Source: an uncultured Candidatus Saccharibacteria bacterium | GTDB lineage: Bacteria > Patescibacteriota > Doudnabacteria > UBA920 | Assembly (NCBI GenBank): GCA_964600695.1 | Contig: CAZRKK010000001.1 | Span: forward strand, 63,043 to 127,042 | DNA length: 64,000 bases | Direction of reading: 5' to 3' | Shown here: in pieces, positions 33,617-49,813 of the stretch | Numbering within the stretch: position 1 is the first letter of the stretch | Layout of the letters: every line of letters begins with the position of its first letter | Translations under genes and position numbers: made by a program | Notes under the pieces: model-generated | Databases searched by the model: none | Seen by the model: the letters and a program-made list of their open reading frames with translations, nothing else | Told to the model about the DNA's origin: nothing

Positions 33617-33640
33617 ACAATAGGAAATTACCTATTGTTC
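33617..33640 (-). terminator. hairpin AACAATAGG-AAATTA-CCTATTGTT overlapping the stop of yjbQ-like gene, followed by T-rich tract on the minus strand
   Basis: Perfect 9-bp stem. The minus-strand downstream sequence is TTTTATTTATGTT. Confidence 0.55.
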
Positions 33641-34075
33641 GCCGTAGATAAGAATAGAAAAATCACGCGCTCTACCACCGTCACATTCAACAAAAAACAA
33701 ACTTTGTTTTTTACCGATAGCTAACTGACCATCTATAACTGGCAAAGTTTCTGATGAACCCAGCAAGAAGGCCTTAACATGAGCATGCCCATTGGAACGC
33801 TCGTTGGTATCAACTTCACTTCGCAATTCGAAGACATCATGACCATAACTGTCTTCTATGGGTACAGTTTTGTACAACATCTTCATAATATCTTGTTGCA
33901 ACATTTCTTCGTTATGATTAAGACGAATACTAGCCGTTGTGTGAGGATTATAAATTAAAGCCATCCCCTGTTTGATACCACTCTCTGTTAGGGCGGTTTT
34001 TGCGTGGCTAGTTATATCTATTAACTCAAATTGTTTACGAGACATCACTTCGACTAACTTGTGAAAGGTTGCCAT
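33632..34075 (-). CDS. YjbQ/UPF0047 family protein
   Basis: DITSHAKTALTESGIKQGMALIYNPHTTASIRLNHNE...DGHAHVKAFLLGSSETLPVIDGQLAIGKKQSLFFVECDG. Confidence 0.7.
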   Translation of the reverse strand: MATFHKLVEVMSRKQFELIDITSHAKTALTESGIKQGMALIYNPHTTASIRLNHNEEMLQQDIMKMLYKTVPIEDSYGHDVFELRSEVDTNERSNGHAHVKAFLLGSSETLPVIDGQLAIGKKQSLFFVECDGGRARDFSILIYGEQ

Positions 34076-34112
34076 ATATATATTATACCAAAAAATGAGT
34101 GAATTTCCAAAG

Positions 34113-35780
34113 TTATCCCAGTGATTTTGTCAAATCCACGGTTGATGTAGGTTGAATTTTACTATGAATTGGCAGGCTAAAGGCAAATGTGGCTCCTTTG
34201 CCAATTCCTTCGCTCTCGGCCCAAATTTTGCCGTTATGCTGCTCGATAATGACCTTAGCAACATACATACCTAAGCCTAACCCAGTGGCGTGAGTAGCTG
34301 AATCTTTGCCTCTAGAATACTTTTGGAAGAGACCTTCGATTTCTGATGGTTCTATGCCCTTTCCAGTGTCTTTAACCTTAACTACTACGTTTTGAGGGTC
34401 TGTAGCTGAGTCTAATTCAAGACTAATATGAATATCGCCTTTCTTAGAATACTTTATCGCGTTATCCACCATGTTGTTGATAACTTGGCGGACCTTTTCG
34501 TTATCCACTAAGATGTCTGGGATAGGAGTGGTTGGAGGTGTATAAACTAAATGCTGCTTCTTCATCTGAGCTAATGGTTCTAATTGCTCTACTAAAGTTT
34601 TTAACATTGGTGCAATATTTCCCATTTCGAAGAAGAATTCTAACTTCCCTCTTTCTATACGTGAAGCATTGAGAAGATCATCAATAGTAGAAATCTGTGC
34701 TTCGTTAGTGACGTTGGTTCGTAAGAGAGCGGCTTTTAATTCTTCGCTTAATGGACCAAAGTCTCCATTAAGAATCGCGCCTACATACCACTTAATTGTG
34801 GCTGGAGGAGTACGTAACTGATGACTAGCAATAGATATGAACTCTGCCCGAGCTTTATCGAGGGCTTTGAGTTGTTCGTTAGCTTCTGCTAATTGTTTGG
34901 ACAAAACTTCAAGTTCTTCGCGTTGTTTGACTTCTTTAAGTACGCTTCGGATTAACAAAATGCTTGTTATGAGAGTAAAAATAGTCGCTAATACAGCGAG
35001 AATTCTACCAAAAGAAGTCGTGGTAACTAATATATTTATAAAACTAACAAGTAATAACGTGAAGGAAATTAATTCTGTTGTTATAACTTTTACACTAAAA
35101 AGTCTGTGCTTAAGAATCGCATAACCAATACCCACAAAGATTGGAAGAATAAACAGTGCAGAGTAGCGAACATAAGTAATGTCATTTAAAACGACCACAT
35201 GCAAAAATACAAACACTATCAACAAAGTATATGCAGTACCTAACCCAATCCCAATAGACAACCATTGTCCTTTTACAGACTGCTCTGCCAATCTATACCG
35301 CTTTATTACAATAAAAAGTGATATTAAGAAAAAAGTGACCAAAGAAATTCCAAAGAATGGAATTAGAACACCAGGAATCGGGATAGCGTGTCCATCAATA
35401 GGGTCAATAGACAAAGATCTAAATACATAAGGTGTCAGTGTGAGCCCCATTAAGATAAAAACCAAAACAAGATACCAAAACCACTCCTTGGATTTATAAA
35501 CAAACCTGGAATTTGGGAAATTGGAAACAAAAAGAAAAAACAAAGCAACATACGGCACTGCAAAGAACATTACTAGCCTAATCCAAAGCAGCAGAGTATT
35601 TTCATCAGCTACAATAGATTTATAATTTACTAATGCCCAAATAGAACCTATTAAAGAATGTAAAATGAAAATTTTGTTCGATGCGCTTTTTCTCTCATGA
35701 ATAAAAACCAGCAACCCTAAAAAGGTAGTAACTGCAGCTGCAACAATTGCATAAAATAAATCTGTGTTTAATGAACCCAT
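34113..35780 (-). CDS. sensor histidine kinase with polytopic N-terminal membrane domain
   Basis: About 8 TM segments, then HisKA (FISIASHQLRTP) and HATPase_c (NAIKYSKKGD...DTGKGIEPSE...GLGLGMYVAK). Confidence 0.85.
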   Translation of the reverse strand: MGSLNTDLFYAIVAAAVTTFLGLLVFIHERKSASNKIFILHSLIGSIWALVNYKSIVADENTLLLWIRLVMFFAVPYVALFFLFVSNFPNSRFVYKSKEWFWYLVLVFILMGLTLTPYVFRSLSIDPIDGHAIPIPGVLIPFFGISLVTFFLISLFIVIKRYRLAEQSVKGQWLSIGIGLGTAYTLLIVFVFLHVVVLNDITYVRYSALFILPIFVGIGYAILKHRLFSVKVITTELISFTLLLVSFINILVTTTSFGRILAVLATIFTLITSILLIRSVLKEVKQREELEVLSKQLAEANEQLKALDKARAEFISIASHQLRTPPATIKWYVGAILNGDFGPLSEELKAALLRTNVTNEAQISTIDDLLNASRIERGKLEFFFEMGNIAPMLKTLVEQLEPLAQMKKQHLVYTPPTTPIPDILVDNEKVRQVINNMVDNAIKYSKKGDIHISLELDSATDPQNVVVKVKDTGKGIEPSEIEGLFQKYSRGKDSATHATGLGLGMYVAKVIIEQHNGKIWAESEGIGKGATFAFSLPIHSKIQPTSTVDLTKSLG

Positions 35781-35788
35781 TTAAATTA

Positions 35789-37270
35789 TTATTTTGAAAC
35801 CCATTTTTGTTTCACACCACTTTGAAAATATTTACGGTGCCCATTTTCCCATAAAATAACCTTAGGCTTTACTCGTTTTACCCCAATCATCTTGGTTAGC
35901 TCTCTAAATTCTGAACTAGCGTCTAACAAAGCCTTAATTACATACTGTTCCAATTTAGTTTTAAGAGCTTTGTTATTCTTTTTACCTTTTATTAACTCTA
36001 TGTTAACTTCTAAATATTGATCGTGACGTTTATTGTACTTAGTGAGTAGATTAAATTTCCCAGTAATTTGGCTGAAAAAAATCTTATTCTCTAAAGCCTG
36101 CTTAATAGTTTGAGGGTAAACCTGTAAGCCATAAATTGTAGTGGAAAAATCTGCCCTTTCATAGATATAAACAAAAGGTAGTTCGAAAAGTTTTATACCT
36201 AATCTATTTGCTTCCTTTATCAAGTCTAACCCTAACTCTTTAAATTTATTTTTCACTTCTTCATAATGATAAACACCTCCGTTATCACCGATATCATACC
36301 GAATTAAATTGGTCGAACTATGACCGGAAATTAGTATTCGTTTTTGTTTGATTTCAAAGTTTGTAAAACGTGGATCATATTGAACCAACGTAGGGATTTT
36401 TTTATCTTCAAAGAAACTATCGTGTAAATCTGGGTTACTCAATATCAATTTTCTAATCAAAATAGTGCCGGGATTCTCGAAAGCCATAGCCCCTAACTCA
36501 GCACTACCGTAAATATTCATGGTGTCATAATATGCGCTCTGAATTCCACATTTTTCTACTAAATAATCCCTAAACTTTTCGGTAAAACTTTCTGCAGCAA
36601 AGACCAGCCTTATAGGGATTTTTTTAAGATCTATACCCATTAATTCTGATTCATCGACAATATCCTTTATGAATGGCGGATAGCCACTAAGTATAACGTT
36701 ATCAAACATTGGTGCGAGTTTTTGTAAAGCATTGAATATTTCTTTTTTATTTATCCCTGGAGTAATTATTGTAACGGGATTACCACGCAATGATGCCATG
36801 CGAAAAGCTTGATAAGTAATCAAGCCACCTATCCAAACTCCCATGCCGAAACAATTAATGAGTAAAGTTGATCCTTTTTTCCCATTATTTAAAAAGTTTT
36901 CTGCAATGATTGAGTAGTGGTAATCGACTAACTCATCTCTTAAAAAATATGTCGGTTCAGATGTAGAACCAGAGGTTGAAGTCAGGACAAACCCTTTTTT
37001 CTTCAATTGTTCTTTGGGGAGTATTGATTGAAGGCTATATTTTTTAAAAAAGTCTTTTTTATTGACCTGAGGAACTTCTGAAGAATCAAATTTTTTGGGA
37101 AATTTATATTTTTTCCTTACTAAAAAATCTCGATAGTTCGGTATCGATTTAATTATCTCTAAGAATAATTTTTTTATATTCTCCTTTTGCTGTCTAACCC
37201 AAAAGCCCTGCTTTTTTACTGACCACTCGGCTATAACTTGTTTAGAATCGATAAATTTAGGTGTTGGCAT
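35789..37270 (-). CDS. PaaK/F390-synthetase-like adenylate-forming enzyme
   Basis: LTSTSGSTSEPTYF aligns with the PaaK P-loop SSGTTGKPT. GMGVWIGGL aligns with GYGLFTGGL. RLVFAAESFTEKFRDYLVEKCGIQSAYYDTMNIYGSAELG aligns with the PaaK A8 region. The P-loop Lys is replaced by Glu. Confidence 0.6.
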   Translation of the reverse strand: MPTPKFIDSKQVIAEWSVKKQGFWVRQQKENIKKLFLEIIKSIPNYRDFLVRKKYKFPKKFDSSEVPQVNKKDFFKKYSLQSILPKEQLKKKGFVLTSTSGSTSEPTYFLRDELVDYHYSIIAENFLNNGKKGSTLLINCFGMGVWIGGLITYQAFRMASLRGNPVTIITPGINKKEIFNALQKLAPMFDNVILSGYPPFIKDIVDESELMGIDLKKIPIRLVFAAESFTEKFRDYLVEKCGIQSAYYDTMNIYGSAELGAMAFENPGTILIRKLILSNPDLHDSFFEDKKIPTLVQYDPRFTNFEIKQKRILISGHSSTNLIRYDIGDNGGVYHYEEVKNKFKELGLDLIKEANRLGIKLFELPFVYIYERADFSTTIYGLQVYPQTIKQALENKIFFSQITGKFNLLTKYNKRHDQYLEVNIELIKGKKNNKALKTKLEQYVIKALLDASSEFRELTKMIGVKRVKPKVILWENGHRKYFQSGVKQKWVSK

Positions 37271-38291
37271 GTTTTGATATAAAGGTTTTTTCTACTATCT
37301 TATTAGCTATTCTATCCATGGACTCACTAGAATTCATAGAACTCAAATATACTCTCTTCAATGTGGGTTTTAACTTACTAATATTTCGCAATACTCGAGA
37401 TTTCTTATACCCACCTGCAAGCAATTCATCTGCGACATTAAGAACACCTCCGGCATTAGCAATGTAGTCGGGCACGTGCAGAATACCCTTTAATTTCAAC
37501 TTATCGGATAATTTAATATCACCGAGCTGATTATTAGCTGTACCTATAATCATTTTACTACATATTTGATTAATATTCTTCTTATTTATATCATTTCCCA
37601 TTGCGCAGGGAGCGAAGATGGTAAATTCGTATTTTTCAAATTTCTTTAAGGGTAAGTATGTAGCTTTGGGATACTTTTTTTTAACAATATTTATCCTACT
37701 CTGGTCTATGTCATAATAGAAAACTCTGGCTTTATCTTTTTGTAATAGTCTTAATAATTCAATTCCAGTTTTTCCAACACCCTTTATTCCTATACTTACA
37801 CTCTTAAGAGTCTTAAGTTTTAGGTGTAATTGTGTCATCCATTTGATACAGTAATAAGCACTTAAGGCCGCAAACTCTGATGGATCACCTGCTTGACCAG
37901 CCTTGCCAATAAAATAAGGTGAGTACTTCAACATCCTTTGAACCTGCTTGAAGGTTAATCCCACATCTTCTCCAGTATAAAATCTTCCATTTAACTTCTT
38001 AACTTGTTGCGCATAATTTCTTAGTATCTGGTCCAACTTAGAACTTTTGGGATCCGCAATTATCACACCCTTACCACCGCCAAACTTCAAACCAGCAATA
38101 CAGGTTTTATAAGTCATTGCTTTTGATAATCTTTTTGCATCAAGTAATGCAGATTTTTTATCCTTATAATTGAAAATTCTAGTACCGCCAAGAGCTGGAC
38201 CCAGTTTTGTATTAAACAAAACGATATAACCTTTCAATGGATACTCTTTATCTTTGGATAAATCAATTATTTTTTCTGGTCGATTTTTCAT
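37257..38291 (-). CDS. Glu/Leu/Phe/Val dehydrogenase-family amino-acid dehydrogenase (short Leu/Phe/Val-type)
   Basis: GPALGGTRIFNY...KTCIAGLKFGGGKGVI is the catalytic-Lys motif. An NAD Rossmann GIKGVGKTG is also present. Confidence 0.7.
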   Translation of the reverse strand: MKNRPEKIIDLSKDKEYPLKGYIVLFNTKLGPALGGTRIFNYKDKKSALLDAKRLSKAMTYKTCIAGLKFGGGKGVIIADPKSSKLDQILRNYAQQVKKLNGRFYTGEDVGLTFKQVQRMLKYSPYFIGKAGQAGDPSEFAALSAYYCIKWMTQLHLKLKTLKSVSIGIKGVGKTGIELLRLLQKDKARVFYYDIDQSRINIVKKKYPKATYLPLKKFEKYEFTIFAPCAMGNDINKKNINQICSKMIIGTANNQLGDIKLSDKLKLKGILHVPDYIANAGGVLNVADELLAGGYKKSRVLRNISKLKPTLKRVYLSSMNSSESMDRIANKIVEKTFISKHANT

Positions 38292-39355
38292 TTAAGCAAA
38301 TAATCATCGAAAACAATTCTAGTACGACCACTTTTAATTTTTTCTCCCAATATAATTTTCCTAGCTATCATTGCCGCAATACCACCTCCGATTGTTACGG
38401 TACTCATTAACTGTGGTCTCCCTACTAAAGTTTTATTAACTTGCATGACTGAATCCAAAACCCGTTTTGGAACATTTTGTATACCAACAATTTGAACAGC
38501 ATACTTTTGCTTATCTGCTTCTGTGATAGGTTTTGATAAAATATCCTTCGCTGCGTTGCCAATTAAACCATTGAAAACCTGAACATTTTTTTCTGTATCA
38601 TACCTTTCTATATCAATCAGTAAACTATCTCCTAAATTAGTTAACATCACGACAGGTACCTTAGACTTTTTTGCTTCTAGTCGAATACGAATCTTCATTT
38701 CAAAGTCATCAATGGCTTCAAAAATTACTTGGGGTTTATGCTTCCCATTAAGGAACTTGTCTAACTCTTTAGCTTTTAGACCGTTCTGGTATAAATCTAA
38801 TTTTATATATGGATTAATCTCATATATCTGTTGGGAGGTTATTTCAATCTTAGGTTTACCTACATAACCTATTCCTGCGCGAATTCTATTTAAATTAGAA
38901 GTAGATAATACATCAAAGTCTGACATCTTAATTACTCCACCAACACCCGTATATGCCATACTTACAGCCATAGCGTTGCCGATTGATAGCCCAACAACTC
39001 CCACCACTGATTGGGATAATTTTTTTTGCTCTTCCGAAGTGATAATATTTTGGTTACGGTTGGTATGAATGATTTCATACTGGTTCTTGTTGACCATATG
39101 TATCAATTGACCATTCCAAGGGTAAAAAATCCAATCCCCTAAATTGGACCTATCCTTACTGCTAGTAGAATTTATAAATTCCCGAGACTTCTTTGCAAAA
39201 TCAGGGTCAAACTTTTCTGATGGGTGTTCAATTTCATATAACTCTTCCAGTTGCTCTTTATAAAGATCAATTACCTCTCTTACCTTTGTAGACTTTTTAA
39301 GCTTGGTAATTTCAGTAAAAGAATATTTATTTTCTCTAAATATAATTGGTTTCAT
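38288..39355 (-). CDS. ThiF/MoeB/E1-like adenylyltransferase-fold protein with N-terminal extension
   Basis: VVGVVGLSIGNAMAVSMAYTGVGGVIKMSDFDVLSTSNLNRI is the E1-like nucleotide-binding motif (GxGxxG...D.D.V..SNLNR). About 110 aa of unknown N-terminal sequence precede it. Confidence 0.6.
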   Translation of the reverse strand: MKPIIFRENKYSFTEITKLKKSTKVREVIDLYKEQLEELYEIEHPSEKFDPDFAKKSREFINSTSSKDRSNLGDWIFYPWNGQLIHMVNKNQYEIIHTNRNQNIITSEEQKKLSQSVVGVVGLSIGNAMAVSMAYTGVGGVIKMSDFDVLSTSNLNRIRAGIGYVGKPKIEITSQQIYEINPYIKLDLYQNGLKAKELDKFLNGKHKPQVIFEAIDDFEMKIRIRLEAKKSKVPVVMLTNLGDSLLIDIERYDTEKNVQVFNGLIGNAAKDILSKPITEADKQKYAVQIVGIQNVPKRVLDSVMQVNKTLVGRPQLMSTVTIGGGIAAMIARKIILGEKIKSGRTRIVFDDYLLK

Positions 39356-39356
39356 T

Positions 39357-40370
39357 TTATTTCATTACTTTTTTTAGATCTAGTCTAGGAGTGAATATTG
39401 GTTTCTTATCTGCGTATCCAATTCTAAAAAACATCTGAGGCCTTAAGTTTGTATTTAAGACTTTCTGTAAATCCTTATAATAGTCGCCAATCTCAGTAGG
39501 TGCTGCCATCACGGCATACTTTAAATTCTGCTTAGTTGCTTCTAAAACTATTTTCTCAAATAACTCCCCAACTGCTAACCAGTCTTGGACATCATCACCT
39601 TTTGAACTAATTACAATAACCGCTGGACTATGTTGTAGCCATAGCTTATGACGTCCCATCTGTAATTTTGCAGTGTTGAAAGTTCTGATGATAAATGGAA
39701 TAAAAAATGATAATAGTTTTGGGAAACCTAAATTATAAGCAGGCATGCCATCTCGGTATTTTTGAAGGCTTGGCCGTACCCAATCTGCTGCCTCTTTAGA
39801 AAAATCTTTATTAGAAAAGGCTACGTCTGTTGACTCCACTACTATATCTGTGATTTTGTCTAATTTATTTTTTTCAGTCACTACAAAGCTATGTAGATTT
39901 TCTGTGTCCCAAGTCTTAATTAAATTAATGAAATCCTGAGGCAGTGTTTGTTCAGTGTATAATTCTCTATTGTTATGTCTGTCCAAAATTGCTTGCAAAT
40001 CCGTACGATTCACTATTGAATTACTTTTTAGATTAGAAAATTTAACGGTGACCTTAAAATTTTCTAGATTACCAGTATTGTAATGGGTTTCAAACTCTAG
40101 ACCATATGCTAAGGCAGCTATTTTAAAATTATAAACCGCAGCACCAATGCTAATGGTCACTTGCCTACCTACAAAATCTGAAAAAGGCAAGATTCGATCC
40201 CGATTTGCAGTAATCTCTACACCTTGATCTATTAACTTAAAAAACCACGGTTGAACATTTCTAGTTGATGGGGCTAGGTGCGCATACCGCAATAAAAATT
40301 CTAACTTTTCACTATTTTCACTAAGTTTTAAGAAATCCTCAGGAATAATATTATCTCTAAGAGGTTTCAT
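39357..40370 (-). CDS. two-domain nitroreductase-superfamily (SagB/McbC-like) putative FMN dehydrogenase
   Basis: RYAHLAPSTRNVQPWFF is the nitroreductase motif. The 337-aa length implies duplicated halves as in SagB-type dehydrogenases. It lies 2 nt from the E1-like gene. Confidence 0.6.
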   Translation of the reverse strand: MKPLRDNIIPEDFLKLSENSEKLEFLLRYAHLAPSTRNVQPWFFKLIDQGVEITANRDRILPFSDFVGRQVTISIGAAVYNFKIAALAYGLEFETHYNTGNLENFKVTVKFSNLKSNSIVNRTDLQAILDRHNNRELYTEQTLPQDFINLIKTWDTENLHSFVVTEKNKLDKITDIVVESTDVAFSNKDFSKEAADWVRPSLQKYRDGMPAYNLGFPKLLSFFIPFIIRTFNTAKLQMGRHKLWLQHSPAVIVISSKGDDVQDWLAVGELFEKIVLEATKQNLKYAVMAAPTEIGDYYKDLQKVLNTNLRPQMFFRIGYADKKPIFTPRLDLKKVMK

Positions 40371-40456
40371 ATGATTAAATTCATAAGAATCAATAACTAC
40401 TAAAAAAATACCATGGCAATATAATTTCTCCTTTTAATTATACCACATTTAAATAA

Positions 40457-40484
40457 AATCACTTGCATATGCAAGTGATTTTGG
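40457..40484 (-). terminator. perfect palindrome AAAATCACTTGCATATGCAAGTGATTTT between HAL-like gene and nitroreductase gene
   Basis: 12-bp perfect inverted repeat with no loop or a 2-4-nt loop. The minus-strand sequence after it is TGtGGTATAAT plus an AAGGAG RBS and a 4-codon mini-ORF. Confidence 0.5.
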
Positions 40485-40491
40485 ATAATAA

Positions 40492-42000
40492 CTATTTTGA
40501 TTTAATTGCTTTCGACAGGCTCTCTATAAATGGGTAAAATACGGAATCTTTCTCGAAGAAAGGCACGACTTGCCGAATCTGATTATGTATCTGCTGGGTG
40601 CCGAAACCAGGCTTAAGTGGGTTTCTGATATCTACAGCCTGAGCTGCACAGATTAACTCTATAGTTATGATTTGGTAAACCATTTCTATAATATCTCGAC
40701 ACTTTCTAGAAGCTGTTGTGGCAAAGCTTACATAATCTTCCTGGTTAGCAGAAGTTGGTATGGAATCAATAACTACTGGATGAGCAAGTACCTTGATTTC
40801 TGCAAGCATTGCAGCTGCAGTATATTGCAAAATCATAAACCCACTATTCAAACCAGTTTGATGGGTTCCAATCAAATATGGAGGAAGACCATTATTGTGA
40901 TTAGAATCCATAAACTTAGCAGTACGTCGTTCAGAAATATTTGCAAGCTCAGTGAGTGCTATAGACAATGAATCCATAACGAGACCTATTGGCTCACCAT
41001 GGAAGTTACCACCGGATATAATATCTCCACTTTCTGGAAAGACTAAAGGATTGTCTGTAACTGAATTTAACTCCACTTCTACAACAGAGGTAACATACTC
41101 GAGTATTTGTTTGACTGGTCCATGAACCTGAGGGGAACATCTTAGTGAGTAAGAATCTTGAACACTATTGTATCCATTATCTGGACCAACTAGCTGACTC
41201 CCTTCGCACAATTCTCTAATTATTCTAGCTGTTTCAATTTGTCCTTTATGTGGGCGAATTTCATGGACCCTTTTATCGAAAGCTGTTAAGGTTCCTCGCA
41301 TACCTTCTAAACTTAAAGCTAAGCTCTTATCAGACCAGTGAATGATATTTTTCGCGTCGTATACATTCAGACTCGCAACAGCAGTTAAAAAAGCAGTGCC
41401 GTTATTTAAAGCCAGGCCTTCCTTTGCTTGCAACTTTAATGGAGTAAAGTCGTAAGCATACATCGCATCTTTTGTGAGTTTTCTTTGACCATTCACAATT
41501 AGCTCCCCTTCACCCATGATTACTAATGCTAAATGGGAAAGCGGTGCTAAATCTCCACTAGCCCCACAGGAACCACGCTCAGGAATATATGGATAAATTC
41601 CCTTATTTAAAATTTCCAAAAACTTTTCTACTAATTCTAATCGTACGCCTGAGTGGCCGTTTGCCAATGAGTTAGCCCGAATTAAAATAGCAGCCCTTAC
41701 CTCAGCTTCCGAAAAGGGTGACCCAGTACCCGCAGCATGACTACGGATTAAATTTTCTTGTAATTCTTCAAGCTGGGTTTGATCTATGCTTTTGTCCTTT
41801 AAACTACCAAAGCCGGTATTCAGACCATATACGATCTTACCGGCTTTGATTATGTCTTCTACAACTTTACGCGATTTTAAAATAGCAGTCTTTGCCTCTA
41901 CAGACAAAACTATATGATAATGCTTATGATGAGCAATGTCGTGAACCAAATCGATTGACAGGCTCTTGCCGTCTATCTCTATGGTTTTTACGTGGTCCAT
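40492..42000 (-). CDS. MIO-dependent aromatic amino-acid ammonia-lyase/aminomutase family (histidine ammonia-lyase-like)
   Basis: The MIO-forming tripeptide lies within GSCGASGDLAPLSHLA. YGLNTGFG is present. The selectivity positions read S-H (IRSHAAGTG) as in HutH. Confidence 0.8.
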   Translation of the reverse strand: MDHVKTIEIDGKSLSIDLVHDIAHHKHYHIVLSVEAKTAILKSRKVVEDIIKAGKIVYGLNTGFGSLKDKSIDQTQLEELQENLIRSHAAGTGSPFSEAEVRAAILIRANSLANGHSGVRLELVEKFLEILNKGIYPYIPERGSCGASGDLAPLSHLALVIMGEGELIVNGQRKLTKDAMYAYDFTPLKLQAKEGLALNNGTAFLTAVASLNVYDAKNIIHWSDKSLALSLEGMRGTLTAFDKRVHEIRPHKGQIETARIIRELCEGSQLVGPDNGYNSVQDSYSLRCSPQVHGPVKQILEYVTSVVEVELNSVTDNPLVFPESGDIISGGNFHGEPIGLVMDSLSIALTELANISERRTAKFMDSNHNNGLPPYLIGTHQTGLNSGFMILQYTAAAMLAEIKVLAHPVVIDSIPTSANQEDYVSFATTASRKCRDIIEMVYQIITIELICAAQAVDIRNPLKPGFGTQQIHNQIRQVVPFFEKDSVFYPFIESLSKAIKSK

Positions 42001-42028
42001 AAAAAATATTAATTAATTAGTGGTGTTT

Positions 42029-42562
42029 TTATTTTTTTATTAGAGATAAAGCTTTTATAACTGCTTCTTCCGCTGTTGCGGCAGGTTCGACTACTAACCT
42101 ATGTCTTGGGTCAAAAAACTCTCCAGCCATTTTGTCTGCCCACCCACCAGTACCTTTTATAGCTACCATAGGGATATTAGCTTGATAAGCAATTGCTAAC
42201 TCTGTTAGGGTGCCACTCCCACCATTTATAGCAATTACAGCATCGCAAGACAAAACTAAATTCAATTCTCTACCACCCCCTCTTTCCATCCCGCTTACAA
42301 TAATCACATCAACATTTTCTTCCACTATATCTTTGCCTTTGCCATAAGTGACTCCAACTGTTAAACCACCTGCTTTTTTTGCTCCTCTACAAGCAGCGGT
42401 GGAAAGTGAGTCGAAATCTTTTTCTGCCCCAAAGAACAAAATTGCTCCCGATTTGGCAATATGATAGCCAGTCTCTTCAGCGATTCGTTCAAATTCCTTA
42501 CTATAATTTAAATCACTGCAACTTCCCATTACCCCTATTTGGGGCTTTCTATTTGATTCCAT
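42029..42562 (-). CDS. LOG/TIGR00725-family Rossmann-fold protein (putative nucleotide N-glycosidase-like)
   Basis: GVMGS... and AINGGSGTLTELA (the PGGxGTxxE LOG motif). Confidence 0.6.
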   Translation of the reverse strand: MESNRKPQIGVMGSCSDLNYSKEFERIAEETGYHIAKSGAILFFGAEKDFDSLSTAACRGAKKAGGLTVGVTYGKGKDIVEENVDVIIVSGMERGGGRELNLVLSCDAVIAINGGSGTLTELAIAYQANIPMVAIKGTGGWADKMAGEFFDPRHRLVVEPAATAEEAVIKALSLIKK

Positions 42563-42605
42563 GGATAATAATTATACTTAATTAACGCTATTATAGTCTA
42601 AATAA

Positions 42606-42635
42606 AAGCCGACTTCAAGTCCTGAAATCGGCTTA
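42606..42635 (-). terminator. hairpin AAAGCCGA...TCGGCTT between the kinase-like gene and LOG-like gene
   Basis: 7-8-bp stem with T/A-rich flanks. Confidence 0.45.
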
Positions 42636-42705
42636 TTCTGTAGCTCGCAAATGCCCATATTATTCCACTTCAATCTCAACTGTGTCGAATATGGTAAAAC
42701 TGGGA

Positions 42706-43638
42706 TCAATTAAAATTAAAATTTTCATAGCGGTTTCCTTGTAAGATTTCCAAGGAAGATATGGCTCTTTTTGCATATATCGCCGACTGTACAGGGTCTG
42801 CATTGCGTACGAATGCAGAAAGAACATTCTGCAAAATGCTTCCTAACCAAAGAAGGAAATTGGCATCAGATGGACTAATCCCCATTTTAGAAGCTAATGA
42901 GTCCTTGCAAAAATTTGTTAACATTTTACACCCAATTTTTGAACCTGGTAAATTATAAACATCTTTTGCAATGGTAATAAATTGACCAAAACTAATTAAA
43001 GTATTACCCAAATAAGTTGATTGCCTCCAAGGATCAATGAAATTTACCCCATCCTTCACTAAAAATAAATTATCCGGTGTGAAATCTAAAAGAAATAACG
43101 ATACATACCTGCACTCGACAGTTAAATCTAAACCTTTTAAATCTTGAATGAAAGTACTCCGCAAAAGCATTTGTGTTTGCTTAGCAAAATAATTAATCTT
43201 ATTTAGAGTTTCGTTAATAGATTTGATACCCATGCCACTATGGTCAGGAATTCTAACTAAATCTATAATTGGAATTAATCCATCGCAGAGTACCTGGTAA
43301 GCAAGTTCGGGATGTTCATTAGCATAATCACGAAAACTATTTTCTAAATAATCTAGACAAAGAATTACACCCTGCTCTGATTCAACTACTTTATAATTGG
43401 GTAATATTTTACCTGCCCCAATTTTTTCGAGCTCTGTAAAACCAAAAATATTGTCAGACAAATCATCAGACTGAAGATGAGAATTAGAATCTACAAATTT
43501 CGCAACGAAAAAAGTCCTTTTCTGCTTATCGTAAAACTTTACTAAGCGAGTATCTGTGTGACCTTTTTTAAGTTCCGAATTATAACGAGAATTTAGCAAA
43601 CTTTCGATCAGACTAATCTTACAATCACTATTTTCCAT
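42706..43638 (-). CDS. hypothetical protein, possible protein-kinase-like (APH/choline-kinase) fold
   Basis: LLDFTPDNLFLV resembles the H/xDxxxxN catalytic loop and FIDPW a DFG/IDxE-like motif. There is no P-loop, so the assignment is weak. Confidence 0.35.
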   Translation of the reverse strand: MENSDCKISLIESLLNSRYNSELKKGHTDTRLVKFYDKQKRTFFVAKFVDSNSHLQSDDLSDNIFGFTELEKIGAGKILPNYKVVESEQGVILCLDYLENSFRDYANEHPELAYQVLCDGLIPIIDLVRIPDHSGMGIKSINETLNKINYFAKQTQMLLRSTFIQDLKGLDLTVECRYVSLFLLDFTPDNLFLVKDGVNFIDPWRQSTYLGNTLISFGQFITIAKDVYNLPGSKIGCKMLTNFCKDSLASKMGISPSDANFLLWLGSILQNVLSAFVRNADPVQSAIYAKRAISSLEILQGNRYENFNFN

Positions 43639-43663
43639 TTATTTATCCTCCTACTGATTTCTA

Positions 43664-44470
43664 TTAAGTATGTGCAATTTTGTTCAAGATTTCTTCAACC
43701 CCTTTTGTATATTTTGCTCTAGAAACATAATAAGCTTTTCTTTTTATTTGGATCTCGGCGTTGCCTACGGCGTAAAATTTATCTACAATATTTAGTGCTG
43801 GAACATCAGCATAATCATCGCCAATCATAAAAATCTTAGCTTTGGGAAAATATTTCTTTTTTAACATATCAATTGCACGACCCTTATCTATATTTTTAGG
43901 AGATACTAATACATTAGCAAATATTTCTGAGACATTAACATTATAACGATTCCCTAAAAAACTTTTTAGATTGTCTGCCAATTCCATTGCTGAGTTAAAA
44001 TCCTTCTTACCATTTTTCTTAACATGAATACTCATCGTCCATCTTCTAAATTTGTTTACCGACCAACTTAAGTTCAGTGAAATCTTTTTAGACTTTTTAG
44101 ATAATTTCACCGTATCAACAAAATTCATATTTGCTTTCATTGATTTAGCCAATTTTTTCAAATATGGAGCAGTATCATTTCTTAAATCTAATAATTTTTT
44201 AAGCATCTCTATCTTACCATTAAAAAAAATAAATGCTCCATTTTCCCCTATGACCGGTCCGTTAATTTTGAATTTTTGTATAATTGGTCTTAAATCATGC
44301 AACGATCTATTAGAATTTAGACAGAAAAAATAGCCATACTTTGACATATTTTTTATTATACTCGTGACATTATTCGAATTTGTGGAATAATTAGGCTTGA
44401 GCAATGTTCCATCAATGTCCAAAAAGATTAGAGTATGTGGCTCACCATTGAGATCCTGTTTATTTATCAT
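43664..44470 (-). CDS. HAD-superfamily (Cof/IIB-like) phosphatase
   Basis: Motif I is LIFLDIDGTLL and motif IV is MIGDDYADVPALN. Confidence 0.75.
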   Translation of the reverse strand: MINKQDLNGEPHTLIFLDIDGTLLKPNYSTNSNNVTSIIKNMSKYGYFFCLNSNRSLHDLRPIIQKFKINGPVIGENGAFIFFNGKIEMLKKLLDLRNDTAPYLKKLAKSMKANMNFVDTVKLSKKSKKISLNLSWSVNKFRRWTMSIHVKKNGKKDFNSAMELADNLKSFLGNRYNVNVSEIFANVLVSPKNIDKGRAIDMLKKKYFPKAKIFMIGDDYADVPALNIVDKFYAVGNAEIQIKRKAYYVSRAKYTKGVEEILNKIAHT

Positions 44471-44506
44471 AAAATTTTTTATACATCAATTATAGAATAT
44501 ATAAAA

Positions 44507-44536
44507 TCCGACTTCAAGGGCAAGCTCAAAGTCGGA
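44507..44536 (-). terminator. hairpin TCCGACTT...AAGTCGGA between AstE-like and HAD genes
   Basis: Perfect 8-bp stem. Confidence 0.4.
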
Positions 44537-44548
44537 ACATAATTTTTT

Positions 44549-45376
44549 CTACAAATACTCCCCCAAGAGGAATGCCTCCTCCCCTACTTTATTACGGTTG
44601 TGTGCAAACAAAATGATACTCTTCCGTTCAGCAACCACAGCCAGACTTCCATCATAGCCAATAATTTGACCAGCTTCGACTTCAGTAAAATCTGCCAAAG
44701 GTTTGACCAAACGAAATTTCTTAGTTTTTGTGAGGTACAACTCATACATCTGGATTTGTTCTTTTTTAGAACGATTGAGTCTACCACTGATATGCTGTCT
44801 TGCCTTTAAAAAGGAGAATATGCTTTCCAAGGCAGTGTCAAAAGCTTTATCTGAACCAATAATTCCACACTCCACGCAAATCCCAACCTTTCCAATGGAG
44901 TTCATGTAATAATCTGTTCCGCCAGGTTCTACATCGTCAAAACCATAGACGATGGTTTGAATGGGCAGTACGTCCGTGATTTTTTTTGCGTTCCTTTCAC
45001 ATATAACAAACTCCCTACTTTCTGGATTAGAACTTGCATGGACATCCAATAACACATCACACTGATCAAGATATGTTTTAAGATACAGAGCCCTTTGGAA
45101 TTCGTAACTTCTTAACTCTTGAACTGATAATTGACCAATTGGTCTAAACAACCGGTTTAAGTTCTGCTCAGTTGACCTAACACCTCTAAGGATCGCATTA
45201 GGATTAGCGTAAGCGATCAACAGCCGACCTCTTTCAATTTTGAGTTCAGGAAGAAGATAATCCATTGCCAGTGGTCCACAAGTTTCATTCCCATGAACAC
45301 CAACGAGAACCATGCTAGTACCACCAGGTTCTTCTCCTAAAATTTCAACTACTTCACCGCTAAATTTCTTATTCAT
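44549..45376 (-). CDS. succinylglutamate desuccinylase/aspartoacylase (AstE/AspA) family zinc hydrolase
   Basis: LVGVHGNETCGP (the H-G-N-E zinc motif) plus a downstream His/Glu-containing core. The length is 275 aa. Confidence 0.65.
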   Translation of the reverse strand: MNKKFSGEVVEILGEEPGGTSMVLVGVHGNETCGPLAMDYLLPELKIERGRLLIAYANPNAILRGVRSTEQNLNRLFRPIGQLSVQELRSYEFQRALYLKTYLDQCDVLLDVHASSNPESREFVICERNAKKITDVLPIQTIVYGFDDVEPGGTDYYMNSIGKVGICVECGIIGSDKAFDTALESIFSFLKARQHISGRLNRSKKEQIQMYELYLTKTKKFRLVKPLADFTEVEAGQIIGYDGSLAVVAERKSIILFAHNRNKVGEEAFLLGEYL

Positions 45377-45398
45377 ATCTTACTCCTTTAGAGAAATG

Positions 45399-45426
45399 CG
45401 GCTTATGTTATTTCTAACATAAGCCG
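45399..45426 (-). terminator. perfect 12-bp hairpin CGGCTTATGTTA-TTTC-TAACATAAGCCG between PRTase-domain and AstE-like genes
   Basis: Perfect inverted repeat read from the sequence. Confidence 0.5.
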
Positions 45427-45432
45427 GCTACA

Positions 45433-46395
45433 TCACACTAACTTCAAGAGATCAACAAGAAACTCTCTAATACTCTGATCCATATTTGGCTCTGATCCCA
45501 CCATATACGGAATAGAGTGCAAGGTCGAAAGCTTAGCCAAGTCTGCAACCTTCACAGGGCCAGCTATATCTTCGAGCTTAGAAAACAGATCTATATGCCA
45601 CTCTAAGATAAACCGCGACAGATCATCTACATGCCCAGCCGGAATACTTGCAGAGTCCCCCAGAGCGCCAGTTGGCCTAGGGTAAGGCCTTGAAAAGTAG
45701 AAAGGCTGTCCATTGTGCGAGATAGAAAGCAACTGACCATCGTCAGCTCTAATCGGTTTACCGGTACGGGCAATAAAGTACCTTAGGTCTCGCTCGCAAA
45801 CCCAATCTATTGGCTCATCGAGCGAAATCAATTGGCAGACCTTTACTCCCATTTTACGAAACTTCCTAAAACCTTTTTTCGTCGCAACGGGCACGTAAAT
45901 TACAAACTCCGTTTTCCCTAAGCTTCGAAGCTGTTGAATTACCCACTCCACTGTTCCGCCGCTAAACAATCCGTCATCGGTAATGATGATCTTCTTGTCG
46001 CCAGACAGACGAGCTGCTTCTTGAAGTTGGACCATAGGATCCGGATAACCCGGTCGAGCACAATACGGATCAGCACCTTCTATTTTATTATCAGGTCGAC
46101 AAATCTGTAATTTATAACCATCTTCACCCAACCAATCCTCTTCTAGCGATACAACGTAATATTCCGAGAGATCCAATTCACTCTCCATTTTCTCCACTAG
46201 CCGAGGCTGCAGTTCTGCCAAGTTGATAATCTTCACATCAACATCATCAAACATTTGTTCGATTTTATCTTTGATTAACTGCAAAAAACCGGCCGATTTA
46301 GTGCGAAGGTCATCACAACTCACCCCTAACAAACCAAAATATGGCGCCAAATGGCTCACATCAGAATGCGTCAAAAAATACTCTCTTTTAGCCAT
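45433..46395 (-). CDS. phosphoribosyltransferase (type I PRTase)-domain protein with unassigned N- and C-terminal regions
   Basis: The PRPP-binding motif is KKIIITDDGLFSGGT. The flanking approximately 130-aa and 150-aa regions have no recognisable motifs. Confidence 0.5.
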   Translation of the reverse strand: MAKREYFLTHSDVSHLAPYFGLLGVSCDDLRTKSAGFLQLIKDKIEQMFDDVDVKIINLAELQPRLVEKMESELDLSEYYVVSLEEDWLGEDGYKLQICRPDNKIEGADPYCARPGYPDPMVQLQEAARLSGDKKIIITDDGLFSGGTVEWVIQQLRSLGKTEFVIYVPVATKKGFRKFRKMGVKVCQLISLDEPIDWVCERDLRYFIARTGKPIRADDGQLLSISHNGQPFYFSRPYPRPTGALGDSASIPAGHVDDLSRFILEWHIDLFSKLEDIAGPVKVADLAKLSTLHSIPYMVGSEPNMDQSIREFLVDLLKLV

Positions 46396-48027: not shown

Positions 48028-48531
48028 ATGTTCGTTCATGAAAATTATGGTATAATAGACTTAACAAATATGGAAACTACTCCAACCCAACAACCTAATC
48101 AAACTATAGTTATTGTTGAGGATGATGTCGCGATGCGCGAAATTGTTGCTCATAAACTCTCTACCAACGGCTTTTCTGTTAAAGAAGCAGAAGATGGCCA
48201 AGAAGGTATAGACCTTATCATCTCTAGCAAACCCAATTTGGTGTTGTTAGATTTGATGCTACCGGAAGTAGATGGTTTTAAAGTTCTAGAAACAATCCGT
48301 AAGAATCCAGACCCGCAAATTGCCAAAACTCCAATTATTATTTTAAGCAACCTCTGGAGCAACAAAGACATCCTCAAGACTAAGGCACTCAATGTGCAAG
48401 CTTATCTTGTGAAGGCCTATTTTACTACCGAGGAGATTATGAAGAAAGTTCAAGAGGTTCTAGCTAATCCAGAAAAATCTGCCGAGCTATCAGTAAGTAA
48501 CCAAGAAGGTTCACCTACTATTAATCAATAA
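48028..48531 (+). CDS. stand-alone response-regulator receiver (CheY-like) protein
   Basis: IVIVEDD...LVLLDLMLPEVDGF...TPIIILSN...K: receiver Asp pocket, phospho-acceptor D, T and K. There is no output domain. The true start may be the internal Met (METTPTQ). Confidence 0.75.
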   Translation: MFVHENYGIIDLTNMETTPTQQPNQTIVIVEDDVAMREIVAHKLSTNGFSVKEAEDGQEGIDLIISSKPNLVLLDLMLPEVDGFKVLETIRKNPDPQIAKTPIIILSNLWSNKDILKTKALNVQAYLVKAYFTTEEIMKKVQEVLANPEKSAELSVSNQEGSPTINQ

Positions 48532-49142: not shown

Positions 49143-49748
49143 TTACTCCTCAACCAACCTCGCCTTAACAATATATCTTTTCAAGGCTGTGCCAATTGGG
49201 TAAGAAGTTTGGAGGGTTAAAATGGCCTTGCCGTTAGTTTCTTGGCTCAGTAAATCTGTACGATTCTTTTCGGCCACAAACTTGTCATACACCTTATATG
49301 TATATTTCGTCCCCTCTTTATCAGAAACAATAATAGGAGCACCGATTTCTATTTGAGGAAGTAATGCAAAAACAGTTTTAAAGTTGCCTTTACTAAAAGC
49401 AAAGTCGGAAGAATGACCAAAGATATATGTATTACCTGCCTGCCCTACCTCTGCTGTTCCAGGGAAAAGCACAACTCCATTAACTAAAGCTGTTTGATAA
49501 GCTGTCTCGTTTGCTTCTGTGACAAACTGAATCGGCGCAACTATGTCTAAACTTTCGATAACTAATTGATTTGGTTCGTACTTAATTGGGTTTTCTTTAC
49601 GAAGTTCTTGACGTTGAACCTCTGTAATAAACACCTTACCTAAATGGAACCGAGCTTGCTTAGTAAAGTAAGTGAAGTTTAACAAACCAAACACTAACAA
49701 TCCTAGCACAACAATAATTAATAAATATTTAATAAATTTAATACCCAT
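49143..49748 (-). CDS. sortase-fold protein lacking the catalytic cysteine (TLQTS instead of TLXTC)
   Basis: An N-terminal TM anchor, the conserved His (YIFGHSS) and Arg (RYIVKARL), and a C-terminal ILTLQTSYPIG. The Ser is encoded by TCT (AGA on the plus strand at 49203-49205). The whole protein contains no Cys. Confidence 0.65.
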   Translation of the reverse strand: MGIKFIKYLLIIVVLGLLVFGLLNFTYFTKQARFHLGKVFITEVQRQELRKENPIKYEPNQLVIESLDIVAPIQFVTEANETAYQTALVNGVVLFPGTAEVGQAGNTYIFGHSSDFAFSKGNFKTVFALLPQIEIGAPIIVSDKEGTKYTYKVYDKFVAEKNRTDLLSQETNGKAILTLQTSYPIGTALKRYIVKARLVEE

Positions 49749-49813
49749 ATTTTTAAGATTAGTAACTAAAAACTACCCGCAGGATAACCTTTGGGTAGTT
49801 TTATTATATCACT

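Follow-up and report, generated by a model that had tools for sequence, protein, structure and literature searches.

Do the co-directional genes in the middle of this DNA stretch encode one pathway, or several units that merely lie side by side? The stretch (64 kb, hereafter the window) belongs to an uncultured Patescibacterium of the Doudnabacteria lineage, and twelve minus-strand open reading frames (ORFs) occupy its positions 33632 to 46395. The original prediction joined them into a single accessory cluster, in which an ammonia-lyase, a nitroreductase, an E1-like protein, an amino-acid dehydrogenase and a PaaK-like adenylating enzyme would make an amino-acid-derived product linked to ribose phosphate. 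All twelve ORFs are indeed present. Our analysis leads to a different picture, in which independent units had been merged, and the five genes at 34113-40370 form a module for a probable oxazolone-type pathway with its own sensor kinase. We assign this reading a probability of roughly 55%. The ORFs of the window were searched with hidden Markov models (HMMs) against Pfam and NCBIfam, and selected proteins were compared with the PDB by profile matching and with Foldseek. The G+C content of the window is low, about 38%; a sortase, numerous tRNA synthetases and closest homologues in Doudna-, Wildermuth-, Staskawicz- and Kaiserbacteria mark it as part of a Patescibacteria (Candidate Phyla Radiation, CPR) genome.

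A five-gene operon conserved in Patescibacteria

The module, the signals in front of it and a regulator gene located further upstream are as follows.

34113-35780, minus strand: histidine kinase with HisKA_7TM, HisKA and HATPase_c domains (Pfam)
35789-37270, minus strand: adenylate-forming ligase of the PaaK family (ANL superfamily); no Pfam match, assigned by TIGR02155 (1.3e-11) and Foldseek
37257-38291, minus strand: amino-acid dehydrogenase of the Leu/Phe/Trp type (ELFV; Pfam ELFV_dehydrog_N and ELFV_dehydrog)
38288-39355, minus strand: ThiF/E1-like adenylating enzyme, a predicted ATP-dependent cyclase (NF005901, the Rv1355c family, 2.9e-87)
39357-40370, minus strand: Acg-type two-domain flavoenzyme of the nitroreductase superfamily, a flavin-dependent oxidase (FDO) by family (NF047509, 216 bits)
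40447-40437, minus strand: extended -10 box TGTGGTATAAT, downstream of the palindrome and upstream of the flavoenzyme gene (read from the sequence)
40482-40455, minus strand: perfect 28-nt palindrome, terminator-like for the preceding ammonia-lyase gene (read from the sequence)
48028-48531, plus strand: receiver-only response regulator (Pfam Response_reg alone)

Tight or overlapping junctions are confined to the string from the flavoenzyme to the kinase. The flavoenzyme and ThiF genes are separated by 1 nt, the ThiF and ELFV genes overlap by 4 nt, the ELFV and PaaK-like genes overlap by 14 nt, and 8 nt lie between the PaaK-like and kinase genes. The palindrome and promoter that had been predicted for the gap between the ammonia-lyase and flavoenzyme genes (40371-40491) are present: the 121-nt gap holds the palindrome, followed by TGTGGTATAAT. 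Judged by these signals, the five-gene operon 34113-40370 has a promoter of its own. The gap gave no Rfam match, only a chance-level hit to caiA (E 0.36), and its ORFs of at least 20 aa are just artefacts of the palindrome. Between the -10 box and the flavoenzyme start, the leader (window 40400-40434, minus strand) carries AAAGGAG and, 13 nt further on, a mini-ORF of the sequence ATG GTA TTT TTT TAG (MVFF-stop). The G+C fraction of the module (window 36001-40000), 0.33-0.34, is below that of most other 2-kb intervals of the window, which have 0.34-0.41, mostly 0.36-0.40.

The distribution of the module was followed through its PaaK-like protein, which has at least 1600 database homologues, essentially all from Patescibacteria. 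Searched against 1.84 billion representative sequences, a profile of the protein retrieved 744 clusters at the 50% identity level (E<=1e-30), and the family is present in at least 574 species-level genomes. From at least 574 matches, we took 80 species-level Patescibacteria loci anchored on the PaaK-like gene and compared them by tblastn and all-against-all clustering of ORFs. Only four types of partner recur when the ELFV dehydrogenase and an aminotransferase are counted as one. The ThiF-like gene was found in 78/80 loci, the flavoenzyme gene in 71 and the gene for the seven-transmembrane (7TM) kinase in 67. The ELFV gene lies directly upstream of the PaaK-like gene in 30 loci, and in 14 others its position is taken by a class I/II aminotransferase (Pfam, 2.6e-44). 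Three of the 14 aminotransferase genes are divergent; all other enzyme genes and the kinase genes share the strand of the PaaK-like gene. Median intergenic gaps among the module genes range from 1 to 26 nt. More than 10 permuted gene orders were observed, and the order of the window, flavoenzyme-ThiF-ELFV-PaaK-kinase, occurs in five loci. Where both flanks were complete, all four core genes were present in 41/48 loci and an ELFV dehydrogenase or aminotransferase in 29/48. The other flanking genes are housekeeping ones (DnaK/DnaJ/GrpE, TrpRS, AspRS). These results allowed us to conclude that the five genes form an operon conserved across the sampled Patescibacteria. The earlier grouping of the dehydrogenase, PaaK-like, E1-like and nitroreductase proteins was therefore sound; the histidine kinase belongs to the same unit, and in places the proteins are fused.

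In eight loci (L014, L018, L020, L021, L033, L043, L065 and L071), a conserved protein of ~310 aa with the motif LGSGSME is encoded between the flavoenzyme and the kinase. It gave no Pfam or PDB sequence match and is possibly methyltransferase-like. Another accessory protein (c16) likewise had no match in Pfam or the PDB.

Among the representative sequences, the profile search also retrieved long PaaK-like homologues, which Pfam identified as the following natural fusions.

P0279: ELFV-PaaK
P0283: PaaK-ThiF
P0364: ThiF-PaaK
P0351 (L167:6001-9729 and L168:819-4547): ELFV-PaaK-ThiF triple fusion, 1242 aa

The triple fusion is identical in the two independent assemblies (L167 and L168). It is flanked on one side by a nitroreductase gene and on the other by genes for an alpha/beta-hydrolase and a HisKA_7TM kinase. 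The remaining fusions lie in the same genomic context, and an unfused version with equal synteny was found as well. The alpha/beta-hydrolase is a lineage-specific accessory gene, also present in L169-L172. Because such fusions exist, we take them as strong evidence that the dehydrogenase, the ligase and the ThiF-like enzyme share one pathway.

Predicted chemistry and sensing

A ThiF-like cyclase combined with an FDO of the nitroreductase superfamily constitutes an oxazolone synthetase, which makes acyl-oxazolones, as in OxzB of Pseudoalteromonas rubra (bioRxiv 10.1101/2020.06.11.147165). The TyzB/TyzC pair of M. tuberculosis is a characterised synthetase of this kind (PMC10404671), and in TrzS (Rv1355c) the two parts are fused. 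The ThiF part of TrzS performs the ATP-dependent cyclisation of an N-acyl amino acid, which is abolished by the mutation D217A, and the FDO part, whose closest solved relative is Acg (2YMV), an O2-dependent desaturation (PMC12856293). Both window proteins point to this group. The ThiF-like protein matches the Rv1355c family NF005901 at 2.9e-87 over residues 3-352, from model position 13 onward, so the N-terminal extension is covered. All 25 CPR homologues examined match the same family (best 1.5e-100), with other ThiF families reaching at best ~1e-23 for the window protein or 2e-25 for other members. GxGxxG, DxD, SNLNR, K169 and D216 are invariant in the 25 sequences, and D216 is the equivalent of D217 in TrzS.

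The flavoenzyme is a two-domain nitroreductase, as had been proposed. It is of the Acg family (NF047509, 216.2 bits against a cut-off of 199, model positions 2-319 of 319) and not of the SagB type. Further matches are to the C-terminal half of the Rv1355c model (1.7e-21) and, over the full length of the flavoenzyme, to MsAcg (2YMV, 6e-10). Each of the 25 CPR homologues is matched by the FDO half of ThiF-FDO fusion families, the best member scores being 2.5e-72 for PRK14851 and 1.1e-63 for Rv1355c. Invariant residues comprise APSxxNxQPW, R131 and R135. By these alignments, the CPR ThiF/flavoenzyme pair is a distant relative of the ThiF-FDO oxazolone synthetases, split into two proteins. The view that it has no obvious described counterpart thus no longer holds, since OxzB, TyzB/TyzC and TrzS are characterised.

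The assignment of the ligase to the PaaK family also stands, as a distant one. The TIGR02155 (PaaK) score is 43.7 bits against a cut-off of 646.3 (E 1.3e-11), no paa genes were found near the ligase gene in the window or the 80 loci, and the protein is not a PaaK equivalog. In the PDB, PaaK was the sole match of the ligase profile. Foldseek with the AlphaFold2 model (pLDDT 82.6) ranked PaaK1/2 and BT_0428 first (~1e-19), followed by NatL2, AjiA1 and ClxA. The last three we take to be CoA-independent PaaK-family ligases that condense aryl acids in benzoxazole pathways. The C-terminal lysine K487 is invariant. A Glu does occupy the position of the P-loop Lys, which had been regarded as special, but we rejected it as a distinctive feature: the position holds E, V, Q, K, M, D or T across the family. 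We predict that the protein is an N-acyl amino acid (amide) synthetase.

For the dehydrogenase, the best NCBIfam match is the Trp dehydrogenase ScyB (248 bits, under the cut-off), and the PDB matches are LeuDH (1.7e-60), TrpDH (4e-58) and PheDH (1e-37). The enzyme is placed by these matches in the Leu/Trp/Phe dehydrogenase clade and is predicted to interconvert a hydrophobic amino acid with the corresponding 2-oxo acid. Since an aminotransferase replaces it in other loci, the activity needed appears to be this interconversion.

From homology and gene linkage, the following course of reactions can be proposed. The building block, a hydrophobic or aromatic amino acid or the related 2-oxo acid, would be provided by the dehydrogenase, or elsewhere the aminotransferase, which interconverts the two. 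The PaaK-family ligase would adenylate a carboxylic acid and couple it to the amino group of the amino acid, giving an N-acyl amino acid without acyl-CoA and standing in for the OxzA/TyzA/TrzA acyltransferase. The ThiF-like enzyme would then adenylate the carboxylate of the amino acid and close the oxazolone (azlactone) ring, and the Acg-type flavoenzyme would desaturate the C-alpha/C-beta bond, like TrzS, TyzBC and OxzB. Two carboxylate activations and one desaturation would be what an oxazolone requires in a route without acyl-CoA. Most plausibly, the module makes a small molecule derived from an amino acid.

The kinase would probably respond to the lipophilic product or a related ligand and signal through a receiver-only regulator. 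In the window protein, HisKA_7TM (PF16927) scores 33.6 bits (cut-off 28.6), HisKA 33.6 (26.9) and HATPase_c 93.5 (26.4). HisKA_7TM was detected in 22/24 module kinases, with polar and aromatic residues of the membrane region conserved; a literature search found no ligand for this domain. The kinase is the last gene of the module in the 67 loci that have it, and the median distances to the module gene before it are 6-28 nt. The relative L166 has no genes for the four enzymes, and its kinase (L166:15485-16888) combines a 68%-identical HisKA/HATPase core with a soluble N-terminus in place of the 7TM region. By eye, this N-terminal domain is GAF-like. Receiver-only regulators adjoin the module in ~14/80 loci, and one lies behind the kinase in L170. 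Immediately upstream of the module in L005, L006, L045 and L065, homologues of the 48028-48531 regulator (56-66% identity) are encoded in divergent orientation. In the lineage of the window, the block from the histidyl-tRNA synthetase (HisRS) to the ammonia-lyase separates regulator and module. The regulator is the probable partner of the module kinase.

The histidine ammonia-lyase and other neighbours

The remaining seven of the twelve genes are listed below.

33632-34075, minus strand: UPF0047/YjbQ protein (Pfam)
40492-42000, minus strand: histidine ammonia-lyase (HAL), bona fide HutH (NF006871 and TIGR01225, above both cut-offs)
42029-42562, minus strand: SLOG cluster 4 / TIGR00725 protein (HMM)
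42706-43638, minus strand: 310-aa protein without a family match (unk310)
43664-44470, minus strand: HAD hydrolase (Hydrolase_3; HMM)
44549-45376, minus strand: AstE/AspA-like protein (HMM)
45433-46395, minus strand: phosphoribosyltransferase (PRTase)-like protein (sub-threshold PRTase match, 25 bits)

The borders of the twelve-gene block are arbitrary, because the same-strand run reaches from 31862 (YceG) to 47881 (HisRS). Terminator-like hairpins were found in the HisRS/PRTase, PRTase/AstE, AstE/HAD and unk310/SLOG junctions and behind UPF0047. With tight junctions limited to the module and hairpins between most of the other genes, the twelve genes comprise at least five transcription units and not one contiguous cluster. 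UPF0047 starts 37 nt past the kinase, ahead of its hairpin, and is probably co-transcribed with the module here. It adjoins the module in one other locus of the 80 (L045) and is a local passenger, not a conserved member.

Most individual domain calls of the original prediction were upheld by the HMM searches (AstE/AspA-like, HAD, histidine kinase, ELFV, ThiF-like and, for 42029-42562, LOG-like). The PRTase domain was seen, yet as a weak match below the cut-off, and for the kinase fold proposed for unk310 we found no Pfam, NCBIfam or PDB sequence match. The HAL reaches 633 bits with NF006871, for a cut-off of 524, and 608 bits with TIGR01225, for a cut-off of 539. Its translation contains GASGD and RSHAAG, in which we take ASG to be the triad forming the 4-methylideneimidazole-5-one (MIO) group and Ser-His to be the substrate-selectivity pair. 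The enzyme called HAL-like is thus a genuine HutH. No hutU or hutI was present among the large ORFs of the window.

A place of the HAL in the module was not borne out. Near the module in the 80 loci, HAL was found once, SLOG three times and the PRTase-like gene once; HAD, AstE and unk310 did not occur. The single MIO enzyme, at L038:3086-4684, has a Thr-Ser-Gly triad and a Gly-His pair, is 36% identical to the window HAL and lies directly upstream of a PaaK-ThiF pair. L038 carries two such pairs, the nitroreductase and kinase being undetected, and is possibly a variant pathway. Conversely, the module genes and the SLOG, PRTase-like, AstE and HAD genes were all absent from the surroundings of the 80 closest HAL relatives from metagenomes (L085-L164, at most 50% identical). 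In 8 of these 80, including L138, L141, L153 and L156, HisRS is encoded ~1.5 kb upstream on the same strand, which echoes the linkage of HisRS and HAL in the lineage of the window. We conclude that the window encodes a true histidine ammonia-lyase, whose gene travels together with that of HisRS.

For the PRTase-like protein, a search of 5.8 billion sequences gave only 8 homologues, and its gene adjoins those of HisRS and the AstE-like protein in both relatives checked (L165 and L166). In L165, the HisRS, AstE, HAL and module proteins are 86-98% identical to those of the window, the PRTase-like protein is 75% identical, and the overall order is kept. At L165:11965-14704, which corresponds to window 42029-44470, PfkB replaces unk310, an inosine-uridine nucleoside hydrolase replaces SLOG, and the HAD protein is 24% identical. 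This suggests that the interval between AstE and HAL is a swappable slot for nucleoside salvage. The replacements by position hint that unk310 is a kinase and SLOG an N-ribohydrolase; for unk310, the PfkB replacement is the sole support. Most likely, the PRTase-like, AstE-like, HAD, unk310 and SLOG genes make up a lineage-specific, partly swappable block for nucleoside or nucleotide salvage. A ribose-phosphate-linked product finds no backing here, as the genes on which it was based are never conserved with the module and the L165 swaps point to salvage. L166 keeps the regulator, HisRS, PRTase-like, AstE, SLOG and HAL genes in this order, together with YceG (HAL, SLOG and the regulator at 78% identity each), without the flavoenzyme, ThiF, ELFV and ligase genes. 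From this pattern, the module is gained or lost as a unit with the 7TM sensor, independently of the HAL block.

The other large ORFs of the window include CTP synthase, GluRS, RF, an M23 peptidase and similar proteins. No tRNAs were detected in the window, and no Rfam family reached its gathering score there. A PADLOC scan gave generic E1 and weak PRTase matches only, by which a defence system was ruled out. A sortase gene adjoins a 1962-aa ORF (window 49143-55702), presumably a sortase-anchored surface protein, and this pairing recurs in L165, with a 1823-aa protein, and in L166, where the protein has 828 aa and carries CLIPPER repeats.

Alternative readings and related systems

Several observations weigh against the oxazolone pathway. 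The ThiF-like protein (293.6 bits) and the flavoenzyme (76.1 bits) do not reach the cut-off of the Rv1355c family (476 bits). The flavoenzyme is nearer to Acg/Rv3131, which have no known substrates, than to the FDO domain of TrzS, and structurally the ThiF model comes closest to AclA (9egb), for which a literature search gave us no function. Characterised FDOs consume O2, and many CPR bacteria inhabit anoxic water. We found no OxzA/TyzA/TrzA-type N-acyltransferase among the conserved neighbours in the 80 loci or the scanned genes of the window. The ligase that would replace it is only ~16% identical to any characterised ligase and may have CoA-ligase activity, and CPR bacteria, to our knowledge, lack fatty-acid synthesis as a source of an acyl donor. 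With the dehydrogenase or aminotransferase missing in ~40% of loci, this step cannot be an obligatory one. A response of the kinase to the pathway product is a proposal based on operon membership and one event of co-loss. The product, the enzyme activities in CPR bacteria and the substitution of the ligase for the acyltransferase are all predictions from sequence.

Part of this evidence would also suit a module without a secreted or signalling metabolite, whose enzymes convert an imported, host-derived amino or aryl acid, in salvage or detoxification or to form or remove the ligand of the 7TM kinase. The reactions would be of a related type (adenylation, formation of an amide or ring, flavin oxidation), with no need for an oxazolone as end product. 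CPR bacteria are in general scavengers with few biosynthetic pathways, ELFV dehydrogenases and aminotransferases are typically catabolic or interconverting enzymes, the kinase is a regular member of the module (67/80 loci), and one lineage adds alpha/beta-hydrolases; the nearness of the FDO to Acg/Rv3131, of unknown function, fits as well. Such a role is, in our judgement, rather unlikely. Two ATP-dependent carboxylate-activating enzymes and a desaturase make a costly design that resembles biosynthesis, and the closest characterised ThiF family, that of TrzS, is biosynthetic (PMC12856293). The ThiF-like enzyme and flavoenzyme could instead act on a ribosomal peptide or protein, at its C-terminus or on a side chain, as in thiazole/oxazole-modified microcins (TOMMs) and other ribosomally synthesised and post-translationally modified peptides or in a MccB/PaaA-like manner, with the ligase adding a further group. 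The pairing of an E1-like protein with a nitroreductase had called TOMM systems to mind. We regard this as improbable: there is no YcaO, SagB-type match or ThiS/MoaD-like gene, and module gaps of 1-26 nt leave no space for a precursor gene. The intergenic gaps of the window hold only palindrome-derived TTG ORFs, no conserved cluster of small ORFs of at least 40 aa emerged from the 80 loci, and the N-terminal extension of the ThiF-like protein is shared with TrzS, which acts on a small molecule.

The pathway originally proposed, in which all twelve genes would attach a beta-amino-acid or cinnamoyl-type unit to a ribose-phosphate scaffold, can appeal to the co-directional, adjacent genes of the window and one close relative, and to L038, in which another type of MIO enzyme directly precedes a PaaK-ThiF pair. 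Against this stand co-localisation in 0-3/80 module loci and 0/80 HAL loci, a HAL block that exists without the module, a cassette swapped in a near-identical relative, terminator-like hairpins between most of the genes, and a HAL that is a standard HutH with a Ser-His motif. The comparative data largely refute it, and we consider it barely tenable. An oxazolone-type pathway with a sensor kinase accounts best for the module. A bolder form of this reading is a Patescibacteria-wide signalling cassette, in which the four enzymes would make a lipophilic oxazolone or dehydro-N-acyl-amino-acid signal from scavenged amino acids in a CoA-free way, and the 7TM kinase, as its receptor, would act through a CheY-like receiver-only regulator on behaviour such as host attachment or detachment; we offer it as a speculation with low expectation.

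If true, the cassette would be the first autoinducer-like system proposed for ultra-small episymbionts, with a design analogous to CqsA/CqsS. As far as we know, Patescibacteria are regarded as nearly devoid of biosynthetic capacity, and how they sense their partners is unknown. The module is a tangible candidate for a small-molecule pathway in the CPR that could be cloned, and the oxazolone reading, if correct, would extend ThiF/FDO chemistry to a new part of the tree, with a CoA-independent ligase. A literature search found no publication that ties oxazolone, ThiF or PaaK to Patescibacteria or describes this operon. The ThiF/FDO chemistry is known; new are the architecture of the operon (ligase for acyltransferase, dehydrogenase or aminotransferase, 7TM kinase) and the host range. 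In databases, the module genes are named 'hypothetical', 'phenylacetate-CoA ligase', 'ThiF family adenylyltransferase' or 'tRNA threonylcarbamoyladenosine dehydratase'. Such names are uninformative or misleading, and the HAL and salvage genes should not be read as part of the module.

The nearest known systems are OxzA/OxzB, TyzA/TyzB/TyzC (Rv2336-2338c) and TrzA/TrzS (Rv1356c/Rv1355c), which likewise have a ThiF-like cyclase adjoining or fused to an Acg-like FDO. In contrast to them, the CPR proteins are separate, distant and under the family cut-off, a PaaK-family ligase is encoded in place of an acyl-CoA N-acyltransferase, the operon includes a dehydrogenase or aminotransferase and a 7TM histidine kinase, and the hosts are Patescibacteria instead of Actinomycetota and Proteobacteria. 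TOMM systems (SagBCD, McbBCD) also pair an E1-like protein with a nitroreductase-superfamily FMN dehydrogenase; the module differs by the absence of YcaO, a precursor peptide and a SagB-type HMM match, and its ThiF-like protein is nearest to the small-molecule enzyme TrzS. The ligase has the two-domain ANL/PaaK fold in common with PaaK1/2, BT_0428, NatL2, AjiA1 and ClxA (Foldseek 1e-19 to 1e-14), as well as the P-loop region and the C-terminal catalytic Lys. However, it is ~15-17% identical to the characterised enzymes, ~60 residues longer, and accompanied by neither Paa catabolic genes nor a benzoxazole amidohydrolase. Among the neighbours, the HAL passes the HutH cut-offs but, unlike in the Hut system, has no hutU or hutI in the window, and the genes swapped in L165 are nucleoside-related, as in salvage systems. 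CqsA/CqsS and LqsA/LqsS are cassettes of an autoinducer synthase and a multi-transmembrane sensor kinase. By analogy, the module would likewise place genes for small-molecule enzymes beside a kinase with a purely transmembrane sensor, a type suited to lipophilic ligands, although its enzymes are unrelated, its sensor belongs to a different family, and the binding of the product by the CPR kinase is hypothetical.

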